A stretch of 43,096 bases of DNA from a phage: the sequence record PZ445463.1. The stretch is one strand, 5' to 3'. This document shows, in pieces, positions 4,948-41,150 of this stretch (positions are counted from its first letter, which is position 1; each line of letters begins with the position of its first letter). The position numbers and the translations under genes are program-made. The notes under the pieces are model-generated. The model did not search any database, had not been told where the DNA came from, and saw nothing but the letters and a program-made list of their open reading frames with translations.

Positions 4948-5334
4948 ATGAATCTTAAAGCAACTGTCGTAGCAGGAGCATGTTTCATCATCCTGGTTTA
5001 CGCACACGGCATCTACCAGTATCGCAGCGGATGGAACGAAGGCCGGGCTAATCTCGTTTCGCAGCAACAGCAGAAAGCACAGGCTGAGTTAGCGAAGAAA
5101 ACACAACGGCAGCAGCAGGATGAATCGAAGGCCGCCGCCGCTGACAACGAAGGCAAGACGAAATCAGAGGTGATTACCCGTGAAGTCGTTAAGTACATTA
5201 AAACGCCTGGTCGCAGCGTGTGCACTTTTGACCCTGAGCGCGTGCAGCTCAAGTCCCGCGCCGTCGCCAACGCCAATTCCATCCCCGGATACGACGATGA
5301 TGCAGCCGCCGTGCAAACTGGCGCAGCCAAGTAG
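4948..5334 (+). CDS. Rz-like inner-membrane spanin (i-spanin)
   Basis: N-terminal TM segment ATVVAGACFIILVYAHGI followed by Q/A/K-rich coiled-coil-like periplasmic domain; overlapping +1 frame lipoprotein ORF. Confidence 0.6.
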   Translation: MNLKATVVAGACFIILVYAHGIYQYRSGWNEGRANLVSQQQQKAQAELAKKTQRQQQDESKAAAADNEGKTKSEVITREVVKYIKTPGRSVCTFDPERVQLKSRAVANANSIPGYDDDAAAVQTGAAK

Positions 5335-5443
5335 CGACGCTGATGAGGATTTGGCCGTCGACGTTCAGAATGCTGAATGCGTACGGCAACTGAGACTGAA
5401 AGTGTTCATGTTGCAGGATTACGTGAGGAATATTCTGGAATAG
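5180..5443 (+). CDS. Rz1-like outer-membrane lipoprotein spanin (o-spanin), overlapping Rz in +1 frame
   Basis: Signal peptide with lipobox LSAC (LTLSAC) then proline-rich SSSPAPSPTPIPSP; overlaps 3' end of Rz-like gene. Confidence 0.55.
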   Translation: MKSLSTLKRLVAACALLTLSACSSSPAPSPTPIPSPDTTMMQPPCKLAQPSSDADEDLAVDVQNAECVRQLRLKVFMLQDYVRNILE

Positions 5444-32570: not shown

Positions 32571-32599
32571 ACTATAATAGCGAACTATTCACATGTCAA
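32571..32599 (-). promoter_or_regulatory. sigma70-like promoter TTGACA-N17-TATAGT with GAATAG-N4-CTATT in spacer
   Basis: Upstream of acidic-protein gene; divergent from the XRE gene. Confidence 0.5.
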
Positions 32600-35969: not shown

Positions 35970-36109
35970 CCCTCCCAGACAGCTGAGATGCTTGCCTTGT
36001 GGTTTAAGGATAAGTGTATCTAAATCTCATTTAAAGAAGTAACCCGCTGAAATATCTACTGTTTCTTAATGTGCCGTAGATTCGCAACCGTAAAAATGTA
36101 ACGATTATT

Positions 36110-36137
36110 GGGCAGGCTTAGGGCCTGCCCTTTAGTT
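36110..36137 (+). terminator. Terminator ending the short non-coding unit
   Basis: gggcaggc-ttagg-gcctgccc then tttagtt. Confidence 0.5.
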
Positions 36138-36202
36138 ACCAAGTAATAAGAATAAAGGCACAACAGTTTCGAAAGAATCACAACGGCAACGTAACTATTC
36201 TC

Positions 36203-36231
36203 TTGCACACCCCAACATAATAGGATACTAT
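36203..36231 (+). promoter_or_regulatory. sigma70-like promoter TTGCAC-N17-TACTAT with TAATAG-N4-CTATTC inverted repeat
   Basis: Two mismatches from the 31-mer family; followed by conserved AACGAGA leader and SD of first early gene. Confidence 0.55.
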
Positions 36232-36265
36232 TCACTTATCGAAACGAGACAGAGGAGTGAAGGTT

Positions 36266-36451
36266 ATGTTTAAGAAGGGTCAGTTGGTTCGTAATAGATT
36301 GAGCGGCGATTTATTTACAGTAATAGAATCAAATCTAATGTGGTTTGGTTTTGTGGAGGTTAATAGCGTAGCGGGTTTCGGTAAAGGGTTACTCCGTAAA
36401 TGTGATTTAGAACTCATCGGCAACAATTTTAAATTCAAAGGGGCGAAGTGA
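36266..36451 (+). CDS. Hypothetical early protein (61 aa)
   Basis: ATG 36266 with AGAGGAG SD downstream of promoter 36203-36231. Confidence 0.5.
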   Translation: MFKKGQLVRNRLSGDLFTVIESNLMWFGFVEVNSVAGFGKGLLRKCDLELIGNNFKFKGAK

Positions 36452-36810
36452 TGGATAAGCAAGTTTTACGAACAGCCGCTGAAGGCGCTATTGAGAAATA
36501 TGGGGACGAATGGTTTGGGACTGGAAGTCAAATTTGCACCGTTCACAAGTCAAAGATTAAGCTTATATCTTATGCCAGCCCTAATCTCGTAATTGAATTG
36601 CTGGATGAAATAGCAGCCCTAACAGAGGAGAATATTAAACTTAATCAAAAAATTGATAAGTTATTAATATGGCCCGGTATAGAGTTTGATTCGTCAGCGT
36701 GGGGTTTCTCTAACAATGATGGTGATGCCGCGCTTGAATTAATATGCGACCACACGGCATCGGATCCTGATGCTCGTGCCGACGACTCTGAGGGAGGTTG
36801 CCGTAAATGA
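36448..36810 (+). CDS. Hypothetical early protein (120 aa)
   Basis: ATGA-coupled ORF. Confidence 0.5.
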   Translation: MMDKQVLRTAAEGAIEKYGDEWFGTGSQICTVHKSKIKLISYASPNLVIELLDEIAALTEENIKLNQKIDKLLIWPGIEFDSSAWGFSNNDGDAALELICDHTASDPDARADDSEGGCRK

Positions 36811-36998
36811 GAATTCGAATAACTGATGTTGATTATGCGGACCCGCGCGACGGTGACGATTTGCCGCTTAGTTACTGGGGTGTTGCTCTTGGTGGTGAGT
36901 TTGAAGTGGACGACGTAGCTGACGGTACATTCGTAATTGAATGTGACGCCGGGTATGTAGTTGTGTACCCCTGTGAATGCGAAGTCCTGGAGGACTAA
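36807..36998 (+). CDS. Hypothetical early protein (63 aa), acidic
   Basis: ATGA-coupled ORF. Confidence 0.5.
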   Translation: MRIRITDVDYADPRDGDDLPLSYWGVALGGEFEVDDVADGTFVIECDAGYVVVYPCECEVLED

Positions 36999-37001
36999 GT
37001 T

Positions 37002-37145
37002 ATGAGAGAAGCATTTGAACGGTGGGCCGTCGTTGAGGGTCTGCCCGTTAACAAGGGTTCGAAGAAAGAGTACCTGAACGCTAAGACGCGTCTCGCGTGG
37101 CGGGCGTGGAAGGCTGGTATGCAAGCTGTGATGAATAAGGGGTGA
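37002..37145 (+). CDS. Hypothetical 47 aa protein
   Basis: GGAGGA SD; unannotated in ORF track. Confidence 0.4.
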   Translation: MREAFERWAVVEGLPVNKGSKKEYLNAKTRLAWRAWKAGMQAVMNKG

Positions 37146-37148
37146 TTT

Positions 37149-37349
37149 ATGAGTCAGTGGATTAAGTGTAGTGAGCGGATGCCGGAAGAAGGCGAGATGG
37201 TCCTTACTGCGTTTCGTGGTGTTGTTAGGTCGGGCGTGTGTAAGGCTGTAGATGTTATCGGCGGTAAGTGTTTTGTAAGTGAGATTGACAGATGCCACGG
37301 GACACCGGCGACCCACTGGATGCCGTCACCAAGGCCGCCGGAACAATAG
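37149..37349 (+). CDS. Hypothetical early protein (66 aa)
   Basis: ORF with GGGGTGA SD. Confidence 0.5.
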   Translation: MSQWIKCSERMPEEGEMVLTAFRGVVRSGVCKAVDVIGGKCFVSEIDRCHGTPATHWMPSPRPPEQ

Positions 37350-37463
37350 TTTAAGATTTTACTGAGTGACTTACGCTGCTACACAGCAGCGTATCATTTT
37401 TCTCATTTTTGTTCTATTTCACCAAACGCAACAATCGAAGCGACTATTGCAGGAGATGCAACA

Positions 37464-37562
37464 ATGAAACTGAATGACATCGTAACCTGGACCGGTAGAA
37501 ACGGAGAAAAGCGATTCGGGCTTATTGTTGCGTCAAACGGCAACAAGTACCGTGTTATGTGA
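37464..37562 (+). CDS. Hypothetical 32 aa peptide
   Basis: AGGAG SD 10 nt upstream; very short, weak support. Confidence 0.2.
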   Translation: MKLNDIVTWTGRNGEKRFGLIVASNGNKYRVM

Positions 37563-37641
37563 TGGCGTCAGTGGGCACGACGCCCGAGGTACTACTGGAT
37601 TAGTGGAGAACGATTATCTTTAAAACACCAATAAAATTTAC

Positions 37642-37670
37642 TTGCACACTGTGATAGAATAGGCTACTAT
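37642..37670 (+). promoter_or_regulatory. sigma70-like promoter TTGCAC-N17-TACTAT with GAATAG-N4-CTATTC inverted repeat
   Basis: Same architecture and AACGAGA leader; upstream of 37702 ORF. Confidence 0.5.
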
Positions 37671-37701
37671 TCATTTACACAAACGAGAGGAGAGACAGAA
37701 G

Positions 37702-37830
37702 ATGTATAAGTATCTGACGGTAGAAAAACTGGAACAGATTTATGCGGAGTTGCGAGTTTGCTGCGTATGCAGCGGCAACTACAAACTTGTTTACGGAGAA
37801 CTGGAGGTAGACGATGCTCCTGGAATGTAA
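37702..37830 (+). CDS. Hypothetical 42 aa Cys-rich peptide
   Basis: First ORF after promoter 37642-37670; GAGGAGAG SD; VCCVCSGNY. Confidence 0.4.
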   Translation: MYKYLTVEKLEQIYAELRVCCVCSGNYKLVYGELEVDDAPGM

Positions 37831-38032
37831 ATCCCATGATCGCTATTGGGTGCTCACTAAAAATGACTTGTACCACCTCAAAGAAGACGGCGACGAGAGC
37901 CGCTGCTACATAATAGACGACAATGGCACTGAACTTGATGTCTATTACACCGGGTATGGTCGGTGGGCGTTATCAGCGGACGATGAATTTGTGTTTGAAG
38001 AATATAACGGGGAGGAGCCAGAAGATGAGTAA
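37814..38032 (+). CDS. Hypothetical early protein (72 aa)
   Basis: Overlapping coupled ORF. Confidence 0.5.
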   Translation: MLLECKSHDRYWVLTKNDLYHLKEDGDESRCYIIDDNGTELDVYYTGYGRWALSADDEFVFEEYNGEEPEDE

Positions 38033-38444
38033 CAAAAACGAAGTATTCGAGTACCTGATTGACCAGCTACGGCAGCAGGTAAATAACAACCAGTGCGAAG
38101 ACCTGGCGCATGAGGTGCAGTCACTTAAGAATCAGTTACGCGATGCGTCTGCACAGATTAAGGAGTTGCATCTGGCGCTGGTTACAGCTACCGGTGATGT
38201 GGAGGCGTACAAACTTATCCGCAAAGGTGGGTACGTTTCCGCAGGCCAGCGCTACGTGGTTGGCGAACATGCGCCCGGGCCAACGGTAAATTGTCGGCGC
38301 ACCCAGACGCCTGTACCGCCGGAGCAATCTGGTTGCCGTAAAGAAGATGCCCAGGAAGGGCCCTACCGTTTCTATTATGTAGTGATAGATGGCTCCGCGC
38401 CGTTCGGTACGAAAGTATGTAAAACGTGCGGGGGATACTTCTGA
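38025..38444 (+). CDS. Hypothetical 139 aa protein with N-terminal coiled coil and C-terminal CxxC
   Basis: Start at ATG 38025 with GGAGGAG SD (ORF-track start 37923 rejected); C-terminal CKTCGGYF. Confidence 0.5.
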   Translation: MSNKNEVFEYLIDQLRQQVNNNQCEDLAHEVQSLKNQLRDASAQIKELHLALVTATGDVEAYKLIRKGGYVSAGQRYVVGEHAPGPTVNCRRTQTPVPPEQSGCRKEDAQEGPYRFYYVVIDGSAPFGTKVCKTCGGYF

Positions 38445-38647
38445 TGACCAGCATCTTATTTATCTGGGTATTGTACGCAGGCCAGATGCAACTAGCGGCA
38501 TCAGAAACGTTTTACTCGATGGAGGCGTGCCAGTCAGCGGCACGCGCCGCAGAGAACGCGCACTTCCTGTTTCAGGGCGACAAGCCCAACGATTCAGAGG
38601 TACGCGCTATCTGCTCACCTAAGAGACTTGGTAAACAGGAGAAATAA
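38444..38647 (+). CDS. Small secreted/membrane-anchored protein (67 aa)
   Basis: N-terminal hydrophobic signal-like MTSILFIWVLYAGQMQLAAS; ATGA coupling. Confidence 0.45.
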   Translation: MTSILFIWVLYAGQMQLAASETFYSMEACQSAARAAENAHFLFQGDKPNDSEVRAICSPKRLGKQEK

Positions 38648-38648
38648 C

Positions 38649-38852
38649 ATGGTACAGAGATATTCTAAGTATGGGTCCGACAACCATTTCATTGACCGCC
38701 ACGGGAAGTGGGTTAAGTTTGAGGACTACCAGAATCTTGACCTAAAGCTGTTGGAAGTTGAAGCCGAGTTACAGAAATACAAGGACCAGTTCCCGGATTA
38801 CGTCGAGTGCGCGAACTGTGGGTCAGTTACACATGTGGGAGGGGTGGAGTAA
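38649..38852 (+). CDS. Hypothetical 67 aa protein with C-terminal CxxC
   Basis: AGGAG SD; C-terminal ECANCGS. Confidence 0.45.
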   Translation: MVQRYSKYGSDNHFIDRHGKWVKFEDYQNLDLKLLEVEAELQKYKDQFPDYVECANCGSVTHVGGVE

Positions 38853-39145
38853 TGTCGTTAGCAACTGACATCCTGAAACGAAGCGGCCTTGCGCCGCTGT
38901 CACCGAGAGCGAAGACACGTATACACAAGCGTCGCCGTAACGTGCTGTACCCTGAGATTCAGGCCAGACGCAAAGTTGTCCGCGCCTGTGGATTCCAGAA
39001 CGGGAAGGCCGTGAATCTGGGTGAGTTCAAAACACAGGAACGCGCAGCTATCGCTAATCGGTTATTTAATTACTGGAAATCGCTGGGGTATGAAGATATT
39101 CCGACGAAACCGCAGAGACGACAATACATCTGGCGTCATAAATAA
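38852..39145 (+). CDS. Hypothetical basic 97 aa protein
   Basis: Start at ATG 38852 overlapping upstream stop; Arg/Lys-rich. Confidence 0.45.
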   Translation: MSLATDILKRSGLAPLSPRAKTRIHKRRRNVLYPEIQARRKVVRACGFQNGKAVNLGEFKTQERAAIANRLFNYWKSLGYEDIPTKPQRRQYIWRHK

Positions 39146-39220
39146 ACCGTTATTAGGATAATTCCTACCCGTGGTATCCTCCAGTTACTGCATACTTAAT
39201 ACGCACCTGGAGGATTCATC

Positions 39221-39529
39221 TTGGATAAATTTACTGAAACAGTGACAGGCTGGCTTCTGGCAGCCGCACTAGCTGGTGGGGTAATCGGACTACGACAACA
39301 TAAGTCCGCTATTTCCGGCCCTATCGACGGATTCTGCTTTATTGCAACTGGCTTCACTTGCGCCGTATTTGGCGCGCCTCTCGCCGCTCAATGGTTCGGT
39401 ATTACCGGAGAGCGCGAGATAGCTGGCCTCGGATTCATCATCGCAATTCTCTGGATGCCCATCTATTCCCGTCTCTCCGGTATCGTCGCCGGAGAATACA
39501 TCGCACGTCGAGGAGGCACAGATGAATGA
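39221..39529 (+). CDS. Holin (multi-TM)
   Basis: Three hydrophobic helices (TGWLLAAALAGGVIGL; FCFIATGFTCAVFGAPLAAQWF; IAGLGFIIAILWMPIY), charged C-terminus; upstream of endolysin. Confidence 0.6.
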   Translation: MDKFTETVTGWLLAAALAGGVIGLRQHKSAISGPIDGFCFIATGFTCAVFGAPLAAQWFGITGEREIAGLGFIIAILWMPIYSRLSGIVAGEYIARRGGTDE

Positions 39530-39794
39530 ATTATTCTGGTTCGGCGGTATGCTGGCAATCGGAGGCACATCGCTGTTTAATGTATATCACCCCAGCGCGG
39601 ATGACGGATTATTTGGCCGTGTGCTATATATCCTGACCGCTATTGTCTGCGCCGCAGGATGTATCCACCTGTTACAGGGCAGCATGTCTCCGACGCTGCC
39701 TGAGACATTAATCACATTAGTTGCGCTGCGCCAGATTCGTCAGGCGTGGCTGTCATACGGAGGACATAAGCGTGTCTCGAAATATTTCAGATAA
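39522..39794 (+). CDS. Small two-TM membrane protein (second holin/antiholin-like)
   Basis: Two hydrophobic helices; lies between holin and endolysin. Confidence 0.45.
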   Translation: MNELFWFGGMLAIGGTSLFNVYHPSADDGLFGRVLYILTAIVCAAGCIHLLQGSMSPTLPETLITLVALRQIRQAWLSYGGHKRVSKYFR

Positions 39795-39884
39795 TGGACT
39801 TACCGCAGATAAGCTGCGCGAGGTTTTACACTACGACCCCGATACCGGAGTTTTCGCGAACCATAAATTACGGGAAGGTGCTTT

Positions 39885-40370
39885 ATGAGAAACATTAGCA
39901 ACAATGGCATCAAATTCACCGCCGCGTTCGAGGGATTCCGCGGAACTGCGTATCGTGCTACGCCAAATGAGAAGTACCTGACTATTGGGTACGGTCATTA
40001 TGGGCCAGACGTAACGCCAGGCAAGACCATCACCCCGGGACAAGGCCTCCTGTTACTGAATCGTGATATGGCTAAGGCTGTAGCTGCGGTTGACGCAGCA
40101 GCACACCATTCATTGACACAGGCACAGTTCGATGCAGTGTGCGACCTGGTATACAACGCAGGTGCTGGTGTGATTGCTGCTACTACCGGCACGGGTAAGG
40201 CACTGCGTTCTGGTGATATTGCAACGCTGCGGGCTAAGCTGACACTGTTCATCAACCAGAACGGCAGACCGTTACTTGGTCTGCGCCGCCGTACTGCCGG
40301 TCGTCTGGCGCTGTTCGACGGTAAACCGTGGCAAGAGGCAGAGGCTATCGGGCGCGCGGTGAAAGGTTGA
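39885..40370 (+). CDS. Endolysin, T4 lysozyme-like (GH24) muramidase
   Basis: Catalytic region FEGFRGTAYRATPNEKYLTIGYGHY matches the E...D...T triad context of phage lysozymes. Confidence 0.85.
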   Translation: MRNISNNGIKFTAAFEGFRGTAYRATPNEKYLTIGYGHYGPDVTPGKTITPGQGLLLLNRDMAKAVAAVDAAAHHSLTQAQFDAVCDLVYNAGAGVIAATTGTGKALRSGDIATLRAKLTLFINQNGRPLLGLRRRTAGRLALFDGKPWQEAEAIGRAVKG

Positions 40371-40434
40371 CACCTGAGACTAATCCGACGATACTTAAAT
40401 CACCTCCTGTTCCATACCTCTGCTCTCCAGTTTT

Positions 40435-40467
40435 ATCCCGGCCCTGACCCAGCCGGGATTTTTTTAT
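40435..40467 (+). terminator. Terminator after endolysin gene
   Basis: atcccggc ... gccgggat then ttttttta. Confidence 0.6.
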
Positions 40468-40487
40468 CTATTTTCTGCAATGACTAG

Positions 40488-40516
40488 TTGACTATTACCT
40501 ACGACCCTATTATATT
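40488..40516 (+). promoter_or_regulatory. sigma70-like promoter TTGACT-N17-TATATT
   Basis: Follows terminator 40435-40467; same AACGAGA leader upstream of 40550 ORF. Confidence 0.5.
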
Positions 40517-40549
40517 TACTCCATCGACAACGAGAACGGAGTAGAGAAG

Positions 40550-40798
40550 ATGAGTAACGTACAGACAATCGCAATAACCGAGGAACTTGAAGCCAAATGT
40601 ATCGCATGGACTATGGGTAATGACCCGGTTGCTATGCGTAAATTTCCAATGAAAATCACAGATACCGAAGCATTCAAAGACGCACAACTGATGGCGCGTA
40701 TCGCCGTTAGTAACCTGAGCCGCAATATCCCTGCGGATGCGTTCTGGTTCGCGGCTATGCAGACACTGAAAGCAGCTTATGCAGGAGAGAAGAAATGA
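40550..40798 (+). CDS. Hypothetical protein (82 aa)
   Basis: ORF downstream of promoter 40488-40516 with GGAG SD. Confidence 0.5.
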   Translation: MSNVQTIAITEELEAKCIAWTMGNDPVAMRKFPMKITDTEAFKDAQLMARIAVSNLSRNIPADAFWFAAMQTLKAAYAGEKK

Positions 40799-40992
40799 AA
40801 GTTAAAGCCGCTAAAATTCTCTGGTTAGCCGCCCTTGACTATGTCACAGAGGGTAAAGTGTATGATGTATACAACCCGACAGCTACTGGTTTCGGTTATA
40901 TAGACTCCGACGACGACTGCCATATTTTCATAGACTTTGGTAACGATGACGGTGATGGTTTCCACGGCGTTAAATGGGAGGTTGTAGAATGA
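40795..40992 (+). CDS. Hypothetical protein (65 aa)
   Basis: ATGA-coupled ORF. Confidence 0.5.
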   Translation: MKVKAAKILWLAALDYVTEGKVYDVYNPTATGFGYIDSDDDCHIFIDFGNDDGDGFHGVKWEVVE

Positions 40993-41150
40993 GCGAACAA
41001 GGTCAAGTAAGCCAACCATTACGAGTAGGCCGTAAGGTGAGTCACACCCCGTTCCCGACACGCGAGGAACTGATGAAACGTAACAGTTTCCCTGGGCCGG
41101 ACAAGAACAAGTATCTCAACCGCATGTGGGGAGAGCGTAAAAATGACTGA
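40989..41150 (+). CDS. Hypothetical 53 aa protein
   Basis: GGGAGG SD; coupled at both ends; unannotated in ORF track. Confidence 0.4.
   Translation: MSEQGQVSQPLRVGRKVSHTPFPTREELMKRNSFPGPDKNKYLNRMWGERKND

Follow-up and report, generated by a model that had tools for sequence, protein, structure and literature searches.

In lambdoid phages, the nin region is followed by Q and then by the lysis genes. A small exported antiholin with a periplasmic domain, RI, is known from T4. The Lar restriction alleviation family (PF14354) is a four-cysteine ribbon. In phages, AP2 domains are found in HNH endonucleases and in free-standing AP2/ERF proteins, such as those of phT4A, Sf12 and HdK5, which are annotated as "AP2/ERF domain-containing protein" or "putative transcription factor". 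The CasPRs of Bacillota prophages combine AP2 with CapR, a zinc-finger-like domain in which a cysteine cluster is conserved; they are encoded in acr loci and are anti-CRISPR repressors that silence cas genes (10.64898/2026.02.23.707548). Here we compare these systems with a block of six small genes upstream of the lysis genes of a coliphage.

The window analyzed, a stretch of 43,096 nt (PZ445463.1), is a whole genome and matches PQ850627.1 letter for letter, the record of Escherichia phage SonjaBuckley_Bas74 (Kagunavirus). Window coordinates are used throughout and equal the PQ850627.1 coordinates minus 538. Bas74 is a published coliphage and a member of the BASEL collection (PMC11990801). The block (37702–39145) corresponds to Bas74_0062 to Bas74_0067, all six of which are hypothetical proteins in the PQ850627.1 annotation. 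The features of the block and its surroundings are as follows:

37372–37393, plus strand: intrinsic-terminator-like hairpin, TACGCTGCT...AGCAGCGTA with a T-rich tail (terminator scan)
37642–37670, plus strand: predicted sigma-70-type promoter, TTGCAC / 17 nt / TACTAT, position conserved in relatives
37682–37688, plus strand: leader box AACGAGA, 13–15 nt past the −10 hexamer and 10–17 nt ahead of the start codon
37702–37830, plus strand: 42-aa ORF with a CCxC motif (Bas74_0062)
37814–38032, plus strand: acidic 72-aa ORF (Bas74_0063)
38025–38444, plus strand: 139-aa protein (Bas74_0064, phrog_6094)
38444–38647, plus strand: signal-like 67-aa protein (Bas74_0065, phrog_3766)
38649–38852, plus strand: CxxC 67-aa protein (Bas74_0066, phrog_29624)
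38852–39145, plus strand: basic 97-aa protein (Bas74_0067, phrog_9632/4947)
39176–39215, plus strand: RNA hairpin, AUCCUCCAG ... CUGGAGGAU (−23.8 kcal/mol, z = −2.95)
39221–40370, plus strand: lysis cassette as annotated, with a holin/antiholin pair (39221–39529, 39522–39794), a 34-aa ORF and the endolysin (39885–40370)
40435–40466, plus strand: intrinsic terminator, ATCCCGGC, 9-nt loop, GCCGGGAT, T7

Four of the five junctions between the six ORFs are overlaps (17, 8, 1 and 1 nt) and the other is a 1-nt gap; a Shine–Dalgarno sequence precedes every ORF. Against their homologues, all six have dN/dS below 1; judged by sequence comparison, purifying selection acts on each. These observations support the reading of the block as genuine small genes that share one direction, are coupled in translation and follow a conserved sigma-70-type promoter. 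The first-pass annotation, made from the letters alone, had described tightly coupled small ORFs behind a promoter, and this picture holds, several of the genes being sporadic or mosaic. It had listed five ORFs; the acidic 72-aa ORF at 37814–38032 was overlooked. The motifs that it had read are present: VCCVCSGNY in the 42-aa ORF, CKTCGGYF as the last residues of the 139-aa protein and ECANCGS near the C-terminal end of one 67-aa ORF.

The promoter at 37642–37670 had also been proposed from the sequence. It has 8 of 12 consensus matches, which is under the threshold of the consensus scan. The site is nevertheless conserved across two genera (Kagunavirus and Jerseyvirus), and its position is kept in Bas73, K1G, NTEC3, EcoPhCCP1, Schulenburg, Jersey, wksl3 and RA112. 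In phage Jersey, a promoter with the hexamers TTGACA ... TACTAT is annotated at the equivalent place. Within Bas74, the promoter is a paralogue of a copy at 36197–36249, with 75% identity. The AACGAGA leader box at the block promoter is likewise conserved in the relatives, and the same order of promoter, AACGAGA and start codon recurs at 36243 (+), 40529 (+) and 32558 (−). The heptamer occurs seven times in the genome, four of them in this arrangement (expected 0.005, mean of shuffles). The operon at 32599 (−), which leads into annotated replication genes, has the same promoter-leader type, and so does the operon 3′ of the endolysin. We found no published promoter analysis for this phage group in the literature.

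The preceding operon of small genes ends at the hairpin at 37372–37393, which is also the upstream limit of the unit to which the block belongs; in phage Schulenburg, the homologous site is an annotated terminator. An annotated ORF, Bas74_0060 (37366–37467), overlaps this hairpin. Downstream, a site identical to the terminator at 40435–40466 is annotated as a terminator in Schulenburg. Our scan missed it because its loop exceeds 8 nt. The next promoter-leader cassette begins at 40488. Between the two sites, the terminator scan gave no further plus-strand terminator-like site. The RNA hairpin at 39176–39215 pairs the Shine–Dalgarno sequence that serves the first holin gene, whose TTG start is at 39221; lacking a T-run, the hairpin is not a terminator. 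An Rfam scan of 36000–41000 returned sub-threshold matches to the terminator hairpin only. Since the six small genes, the holins and the endolysin share the interval between two terminators, they probably form one transcription unit, and we infer that they are co-transcribed.

This layout resembles the lambdoid nin-Q-lysis region in that both place small, overlapping genes, mostly of unknown function, upstream of holin and endolysin. The likeness is positional only, and relatives of Bas74 carry NinH-, DUF2737- and DUF551-type genes in neighbouring operons. Unlike the lambdoid layout, the Bas74 unit has its own predicted sigma-70 promoter, with neither a long leader nor a terminator before the holin, and no Q-type antiterminator was recognised in Bas74 in this comparison.

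The conservation of each gene was gauged by counting tblastn records over 50,697 phage records, with the endolysin (473 records) as the yardstick. The signal-like 67-aa protein (475 records) and the 97-aa protein (495) are about as widespread as the endolysin; the 139-aa protein reaches 233 records and the CxxC 67-aa protein 101. The 42-aa ORF was found in 20 of the 50,697 records and in 4 of 67 IMG/VR loci, and the 72-aa ORF in 18 records. The signal-like gene is present in all 67 IMG/VR metagenomic loci and in all nine loci compared directly (the Bas74 record and eight relatives). The order of signal-like 67-aa gene, 97-aa gene, holins and endolysin is kept in 65–66 of the 67 IMG/VR loci, down to 53–61% identity. 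By these sequence counts, the signal-like and 97-aa genes are core genes of the Guernseyvirinae, located upstream of the lysis genes. The same comparisons support a sporadic or mosaic distribution for the 42-aa, 72-aa, CxxC 67-aa and modular 139-aa genes. At the site of the variable ORFs, relatives also carry an inserted HNH endonuclease and an HslV-like peptidase; in phage NTEC3, an HNH endonuclease is inserted within the block. Such insertion places often house accessory genes, anti-defence genes included.

The 97-aa protein begins with an invariant MSLATDILK peptide, which is followed by a basic linker and an AP2-like domain at approximately residues 41–80. The first-pass annotation had suggested structure prediction and fold comparison for these ORFs and had seen no recognisable motif in the block. 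For the 97-aa protein the latter claim fails, as the prediction gives an antiparallel β-sheet packed on one C-terminal α-helix, which is the AP2/ERF fold (PF00847). Over approximately 40 residues the protein is 26–42% identical to phage AP2/ERF proteins and domains, and the pattern W-x-A...G-K-x-V-x-L-G-x-F-x-T-x-x-x-A is in register between the 97-aa family and phage AP2 domains. The Bas74 protein itself has no match to the Pfam AP2 model at E up to 1; two distant members of the family score 15.2 and 15.8 bits, below the cut-off of 33.3. An hhalign comparison with four approximate plant AP2 sequences gave a probability of 74%. PDB sequence searches with the protein and with the family profile gave nothing meaningful. 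The first-pass annotation had called the protein basic, and its pI is indeed 11.35; this is compatible with DNA binding and is not specific to it. The dN/dS is 0.06–0.3. Nine of the first ten residues are invariant across members that are only 35% identical, and the β-strand residues are poorly conserved. In phage Jersey the AP2 gene is broken in two (gp60 and gp61), and that phage may therefore be able to do without it.

Taken together, we predict the 97-aa protein to be an AP2-type DNA-binding protein. Most likely, it would be a sequence-specific regulator of phage, or possibly host, transcription. It shares its small fold with the free-standing phage AP2/ERF proteins and with the AP2 domains of HNH endonucleases, but the family differs in having the extra MSLATDILK peptide and the basic linker, and in having no nuclease domain. 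In the 97-aa form its first strand is not confidently formed, it falls below the Pfam AP2 cut-off, and its gene belongs to the subfamily core, with a constant place ahead of the lysis genes. With the CasPRs, it shares the description of a small phage protein with an AP2 domain, which in CasPRs is needed for sequence-specific DNA binding, and they set a precedent for an AP2 silencer in anti-defence. This likeness is one of description. The 97-aa protein has a single cysteine (position 46) where CasPRs have the CapR cysteine cluster, and it belongs to the core of virulent enterobacterial siphophages, near the lysis genes, whereas CasPRs belong to acr loci of Bacillota (pro)phages. We also considered the protein as a binder of the AACGAGA box. 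This is unsupported; the box is equal in both genera, the AP2 domains are approximately 36% identical, and the strand residues are variable.

The signal-like 67-aa protein consists of a conserved hydrophobic N-terminus (MTSILFIW...) and a domain of approximately 45 residues. It had been described as having a signal-like segment and three cysteines. The hydrophobic N-terminus stands, but there are two cysteines, Cys29 and Cys57, both invariant in the family. The dN/dS is 0.03–0.19 in nine of ten comparisons and 0.40 against Schulenburg. On the Kyte–Doolittle scale, the 9-residue mean is 2.58 and the 19-residue maximum is 1.34, the latter being too low for a transmembrane helix; from its sequence, the N-terminus fits a short signal-type h-region rather than such a helix. 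There is no Lys or Arg in residues 1–20, and hence no basic n-region, and the AAS|E cleavage site that is possible in Bas74 is not conserved in the family. The N-terminus is also more conserved than is usual for signal peptides. For these three reasons export is uncertain. A HMMER search of the whole library gave only 16 representative clusters; no function is attached to any of these, and two are spurious repeat proteins. One homologue lies on an unrelated 58-kb phage contig that lacks Bas74-type holin, endolysin and 97-aa genes. Holin-like membrane ORFs are present on this contig approximately 1.5 kb away, on the opposite strand.

Most likely, the signal-like protein would be exported or membrane-associated and disulfide-bonded, and its site of action would be the cell envelope, where it would take part in the timing of lysis or in superinfection exclusion. 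It resembles T4 RI in its small size, its hydrophobic N-terminus, a domain that is probably periplasmic and the closeness of its gene to the lysis genes. This likeness is not drawn from sequence or fold, there is no co-variation with the holin type, and export is putative. A spanin identity was rejected for both this protein, which has no lipobox, and the 139-aa protein, which has no N-terminal hydrophobic or transmembrane segment; the spanins of Bas74 are annotated elsewhere, at 4948–5334 and 5300–5443. The spanins of phage Schulenberg are described by CPT as apart from its lysis cassette (PMC6763661).

The semi-conserved 139-aa protein comprises a long N-terminal helix or coiled coil, a disordered linker and a C-terminal CxxCG knuckle, as seen in the AF2 model and the alignment. 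The helix (residues 2–56) is modeled at a pLDDT of 75–92, and residues 69–114 are below 50. In Bas74 the knuckle is degenerate, having lost the Cys/His half-site of most relatives. The family has 1334 homologues of 108–237 aa, in which coiled-coil modules are inserted and one to four CxHxW...CxxCG repeats occur. The dN/dS is 0.2–0.43. The model, which is mostly helix and disorder, gave no fold match (all E > 4), and a PDB sequence search with the protein gave nothing meaningful. The protein would oligomerise through its coiled coil, to which a flexible linker joins a small cysteine knuckle, and its relatives would diverge through the gain and loss of helical modules and zinc-knuckle repeats.

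In the CxxC 67-aa protein (dN/dS 0.24–0.67), the ends are conserved, a coiled-coil insert is variable, and the C-terminal region carries CANCGSVTH with the only two cysteines, Cys54 and Cys57. Jersey gp59, a homologue, lacks the CxxC. Like Lar, it is small, phage-encoded and equipped with a CxxC motif, and it gives a weak Pfam match, but an assignment to Lar was rejected: the match scores 13.1 bits against a cut-off of 28.6 (E = 0.11), the protein has two cysteines in place of the four of the Lar ribbon, and the phage is reportedly highly RM-sensitive. The 72-aa ORF has a pI of 4.1 and 21 Asp and Glu residues. Neither it nor the 42-aa ORF matched a family in Pfam, PHROGs, NCBIfam or PADLOC. 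The 42-aa, 72-aa and CxxC 67-aa ORFs would be moron-like variable inserts, to which we assign no role.

Rarity and the absence of a family match could mean that the 42-aa and 72-aa ORFs are chance reading frames in the leader region and not genes, and their dN/dS values (0.25 and 0.22, respectively) each come from a single comparison with few sites. Both values are nonetheless near 0.2, both ORFs have good Shine–Dalgarno sequences and overlapping stop and start codons, and the 72-aa ORF is intact at 56% amino-acid identity although its synonymous sites are saturated (pS = 1.0, pN = 0.30). We therefore regard chance frames as very unlikely. A similar doubt may be raised for the 97-aa gene. As the phage AP2 fold is mostly part of HNH homing endonucleases, one of which sits in the block of NTEC3, the gene could be the decaying and functionless remnant of an HNH-AP2 enzyme, and its split in Jersey would agree with this. 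A remnant is hard to reconcile with approximately 495 records, about as many as for the endolysin, with the low dN/dS or with the invariant N-terminus, and no HNH remnant adjoins the gene. This makes decay highly improbable. The core genes might instead serve accessory lysis or envelope functions, with the signal-like protein as a periplasmic or membrane regulator of holin and endolysin (antiholin-like) or a superinfection-exclusion factor, and the block as part of the lysis cassette. Their fixed place ahead of the holins and endolysin, the probable co-transcription and a strength of selection equal to that on the holins and endolysin all point this way, as does the hydrophobic N-terminus with an invariant cysteine pair, as for a periplasmic disulfide. 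However, the allele of the signal-like gene is independent of the holin type (87–94% identical where holin 1 is 25% identical), its homologue on the 58-kb contig does without the Bas74-type lysis genes, and the spanins are encoded elsewhere (4948–5443). Bas74 already carries a gene for T4 Imm-like superinfection immunity, and export is putative. We consider this explanation unlikely as a whole.

The first-pass annotation had taken the block for an early host-takeover or anti-defence set, in which each protein would inhibit a host defence or process. A sigma-70-type promoter is usable by the unmodified host polymerase, the 42-aa, 72-aa and CxxC 67-aa ORFs are sporadic, and relatives acquire foreign genes here; the 139-aa family diversifies fast through module gain and loss, and the 72-aa ORF shares a strongly acidic composition with DNA-mimic proteins. 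AP2-domain phage proteins, the CasPRs, can silence cas genes (10.64898/2026.02.23.707548). The term "early" is not supported: no terminator-like site was detected before the holins and endolysin, which probably belong to the same unit, and the same promoter-leader type precedes both the operon that leads into the replication genes and the post-endolysin operon. In the one Kagunavirus RNA-seq study, of K1B4 (PMC12645636), the time resolution is poor, the gene calls are sparse and the text does not assign the block genes to a temporal class. Searches of the six ORFs against Pfam, PHROGs, NCBIfam and PADLOC gave no match of known function, only coiled-coil noise and PHROGs of unknown function. 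The anti-restriction families in Pfam and PHROGs gave no match, Lar being the sole hint, which fails. The PDB searches with the 97- and 139-aa proteins and the fold search with the 139-aa model showed no likeness to characterised anti-defence proteins (Ocr, ArdA, Acr, Tad, Gad, Acb and others). In the BASEL paper, Kagunavirus isolates, Bas74 among them, are reported to be highly sensitive to RM systems and to vary in their sensitivity to Old; small siphoviruses are placed there among the phages that lack genes for a dedicated protection mechanism (PMC11990801). As no anti-defence family was matched and the phage is reportedly highly RM-sensitive, an anti-defence role is unsupported for the two core genes, and a core pattern fixed upstream of lysis genes is not that of an anti-defence accessory. 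Moreover, transcriptional silencing of host genes is of little use in a short lytic cycle. For the block as a set, we find this interpretation rather improbable; nothing was found that shows any of its genes to block host defences. Bolder still, the 97-aa family, which almost all Guernseyvirinae keep, might be a new class of AP2-only regulator that, by means of its invariant N-terminal peptide and AP2 domain, silences a host defence or host operon (CasPR-like without CapR) or acts as the master switch of the four AACGAGA cassettes, with the hypervariable zinc-knuckle arrays of the 139-aa family as arms-race decoys. We give this little credence.

The explanation that we prefer, with moderate confidence, is that the block would be the promoter-proximal half of a single host-RNA-polymerase unit, which runs from the promoter at 37642 through six small genes, two holins and the endolysin to the terminator at 40435–40466. 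It would combine a backbone conserved in the Guernseyvirinae, the putative regulator of 97 aa and the signal-like envelope protein, with the semi-conserved 139-aa protein and moron-like variable inserts. All of these biological roles are predictions, as are co-transcription, DNA binding and export; the analysis itself shows that the genes are real, how they are conserved and ordered, that the promoter is conserved, where the terminators lie and that the 97-aa protein has an AP2-like fold. Apart from one new domain assignment, the AP2-like one, the block is phage dark matter of the ordinary kind, and it would not surprise a phage specialist. The BASEL collection is intended as a reference set for work on phage–host interactions, and the sorting into core, semi-conserved and sporadic genes tells experimenters which deletions to prioritize. 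Candidates for anti-defence are narrowed to the 42-aa, 72-aa and CxxC 67-aa ORFs, and perhaps the 139-aa ORF. The four promoter-leader cassettes that share the AACGAGA box provide a simple transcription map for this phage group, and the AP2-like assignment gives one of its core genes a testable activity, DNA binding.

The sequence is identical to GenBank PQ850627.1 (Escherichia phage SonjaBuckley_Bas74; 100% across all 43,096 bases), and window coordinates equal record coordinates minus 538. Bas74 is a Kagunavirus (Guernseyvirinae) of the second BASEL collection (PMC11990801). The six ORFs of the block at 37702–39145 are Bas74_0062 to 0067; the record labels each of them 'hypothetical protein'. 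Neighbouring ORFs overlap by 17, 8, 1 and 1 nt or lie 1 nt apart, and a Shine–Dalgarno sequence precedes each. Because dN/dS against homologues in related phages is below 1 for every ORF, the six are coding sequences, the 42-aa and 72-aa ORFs being the least certain. The first-pass annotation had described the ORFs largely correctly: they exist, although it skipped the acidic 72-aa ORF and gave the signal-like protein three cysteines instead of two.

Genes of the block and the endolysin, with dN/dS and the number of records matched by tblastn, out of 50,697 phage records
37702–37830, plus strand: 42-aa ORF, CCxC motif; dN/dS 0.25; 20 records
37814–38032, plus strand: 72-aa ORF, acidic (pI 4.1, 21 Asp+Glu); dN/dS 0.22; 18 records
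38025–38444, plus strand: 139-aa ORF, C-terminus CKTCGGYF; dN/dS 0.17–0.43; 233 records
38444–38647, plus strand: signal-like 67-aa ORF, two Cys; dN/dS 0.03–0.19 in 9/10 comparisons, 0.40 against Schulenburg; 475 records
38649–38852, plus strand: CxxC 67-aa ORF, CxxC close to the C-terminus; dN/dS 0.24–0.67; 101 records
38852–39145, plus strand: 97-aa ORF, basic (pI 11.35); dN/dS 0.06–0.30; 495 records
39885–40370: endolysin; 473 records

The 67 IMG/VR loci retrieved via the signal-like 67-aa family carry, downstream of that gene, a 97-aa homologue (65/67) and the endolysin (66/67). The order is constant, and it is retained even where the signal-like protein is only 53–61% identical. Salmonella phage RA112 shares 94% identity with Bas74 in this protein and just 25–40% in the holins. 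Some relatives have further genes inside the block, encoding an HslV-like peptidase (Bas73, wksl3, FSL SP-101) or an HNH endonuclease (NTEC3). Given the record counts, the fixed order and these foreign genes, the block can be described as a conserved backbone interrupted by insertion points, an insertion hot spot.

Additional HslV/HNH genes in the compared loci (L-numbers)
L002 3152–3592
L007 4187–4621
L008 4078–4512
L009 3415–3888

The gene labelled 'HslV family peptidase' is placed between the 97-aa gene and the holin, and the NTEC3 HNH homing endonuclease between the 139-aa and signal-like genes. A homologue of the 72-aa ORF (56% identical) occurs in two short 'Listeria phage' records, OR848645.1 and OR847174.1. 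The homologues there are identical to those of E. coli and Salmonella phages from the same submission series, and the two records are probably mislabelled or cross-contaminated contigs.

The promoter proposed at 37642–37670 (TTGCAC, 17 nt, TACTAT) is conserved: its hexamers keep their position in Kagunavirus and Jerseyvirus relatives, and the AACGAGA-bearing leader 3' of it is itself conserved. Since just 8/12 consensus positions match, the site was absent from the promoter scan output. The Jersey equivalent reads TTGACA ... TACTAT and has a promoter annotated there. A composite search (TTGNNN, 16–18 nt, TANNNT, 10–18 nt, AACGAGA, 5–25 nt, ATG) gave four copies in the genome, against a mean of 0.005 in shuffled genomes.

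Promoter-leader cassettes matching the composite
36203–36268, plus strand
37642–37704, plus strand
40488–40552, plus strand
32599–32537, minus strand

The observed layout is TTGNNN, 17 nt, TANNNT, 13–15 nt, AACGAGA, Shine–Dalgarno, ATG. Each cassette heads an operon and is kept in Kagunavirus and Jerseyvirus relatives. The copies at 36197 and 37636 also came up in an independent repeat search, as one direct repeat of 53 nt. Lying at about +8 to +16, the AACGAGA box may serve as an operator or as a translation element. The minus-strand operon at 32599, whose first gene is Bas74_0047, has the same promoter-leader type and leads into annotated exonuclease, ssDNA-annealing protein and DNA polymerase genes. 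The 'early' timing assigned to the block can therefore not be read from its promoter. The sole Kagunavirus transcriptome found, that of K1B4 (PMC12645636), reports 4 early, 42 middle (lysozyme among them) and 11 late genes and does not state the class of the block genes.

Two terminators flank the region.

37372–37393, plus strand: terminator-like hairpin upstream of the block; a terminator is annotated at the same place in Schulenburg
40435–40466, plus strand: strong intrinsic terminator just 3' of the endolysin (ATCCCGGC, 9-nt loop, GCCGGGAT, T7)

In Schulenburg, whose annotation is from CPT, a terminator is annotated at the place of the second as well. The 9-nt loop kept this one out of the consensus scan's output, and its Rfam matches are to sRNA only and sub-threshold. 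The terminator scan gave no other plus-strand site between the two. With terminators on either side and none between, the six small genes, two holins and endolysin probably form one transcription unit. Bas74_0060 (33-aa ORF, 37366–37467) has its GTG start inside the first hairpin, and this ORF call is probably spurious. A 9-bp RNA hairpin at 39176–39215 (AUCCUCCAG/CUGGAGGAU, z = -2.95) pairs the Shine–Dalgarno of the first holin gene (TTG start at 39221), which points to control of holin synthesis at the level of translation. Of the first nine loci, only those of Bas74 and Bas73 have the annotated 34-aa ORF Bas74_0070 (39794–39898), which lies between holin 2 and the endolysin; 3/67 IMG/VR loci have a partial match, and it is doubtful whether this ORF is a gene.

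In homologues of the 97-aa protein, nine of the first ten residues are invariant (MSLATDILK), followed by a basic linker and a C-terminal domain that in 116–133-aa forms resembles AP2 (GV..(x)..W.A..Y.G.K...LG.F.T..RA..A). AP2 (PF00847) was the sole Pfam family seen, in distant members only and below cut-off (E = 0.018, 0.028); the 97-aa protein does not pass the Pfam AP2 sequence threshold, and a profile search of PDB sequences with the family was negative. In the AlphaFold2 model, residues 41–80 form a core predicted with confidence (pLDDT 80–89), a β-hairpin plus helix. When the model was compared with the viral BFVD library by Foldseek, the family's own members ranked first; subsequent named matches were mostly AP2/ERF proteins and HNH endonucleases (probability 0.99–1.0), for example the phage phT4A AP2/ERF protein (42% identity across 43 columns). 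Alignment of the family by hhalign with four plant AP2 sequences gave 74% probability in the expected register. Because of the Pfam trace, the modelled core, the BFVD matches and hhalign, we assign the protein a predicted AP2-like DNA-binding fold. In the Jersey reference genome two ORFs, gp60 and gp61 (L003 3913–4334), take the place of this single gene; the split reflects a frameshift mutation or else an error in sequencing.

The 139-aa family (1334 homologues, 108–237 aa) has a conserved N-terminal helix, optional helical inserts, a conserved linker (GEHxPGxTVNCRCT..PEQSGCRKED) and one to four tandem C-terminal CxHxW...CxxCG knuckles. It is modular to an unusual degree for a small phage protein; its size spread among the homologues (P0043–P0162) comes from inserted helical modules and knuckle number. 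In Bas74 and its nearest relatives the knuckle has lost its first Cys and its His to other residues (QEGPYRF), so that only CxxC is left. The model shows a long helix at 2–56 (pLDDT 75–92), disorder at 69–114 and a weak hairpin, and its fold search gave no match.

The signal-like protein has just 16 clusters among 1.84 billion representative proteins searched. True relatives retain the N-terminal MTSILFIW segment, a TFY..EAC..AA..AE motif and two invariant cysteines. Hydropathy fits a short signal-type h-region better than a transmembrane helix; a basic n-region is absent, and the putative cleavage site varies among relatives. A 53% identical homologue lies among small ORFs of an unrelated 58-kb phage contig (L079 4001–4195, IMGVR_UViG_2974706976_000001). 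This contig lacks the 97-aa gene and a Bas74-type holin or endolysin; at a distance of about 1.5 kb from the homologue, the opposite strand encodes holin-like membrane ORFs. A spanin was considered and rejected: the Bas74 spanins are at 4948–5443, and CPT reports Schulenberg spanins separate from the lysis cassette (PMC6763661).

The block had been proposed to serve host takeover or anti-defence. None of the six ORFs matched a family of known function in Pfam, PHROGs, NCBIfam or PADLOC. The CxxC 67-aa family, with conserved ends flanking a variable helical insert, was compared with Lar; the match is weak (E = 0.11) and fails by score and by cysteine count, which is only two. CasPRs, phage CapR+AP2 proteins, silence cas genes (preprint 10.64898/2026.02.23.707548). 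The 97-aa protein, unlike these, has no CapR domain and is therefore not a CasPR; by analogy, a silencing role is conceivable. The high restriction–modification sensitivity reported for Kagunavirus isolates including Bas74 argues against effective anti-restriction, as far as the systems tested there are concerned. The anti-defence reading is a generic guess, which the evidence makes unlikely for the two core genes (signal-like 67 aa and 97 aa); for the sporadic genes it may hold.

Of most use among the new points are the predicted AP2-like fold of Bas74_0067, the core/accessory division of the block, the operon structure that the block probably shares with the lysis cassette, and the four promoter-leader cassettes.
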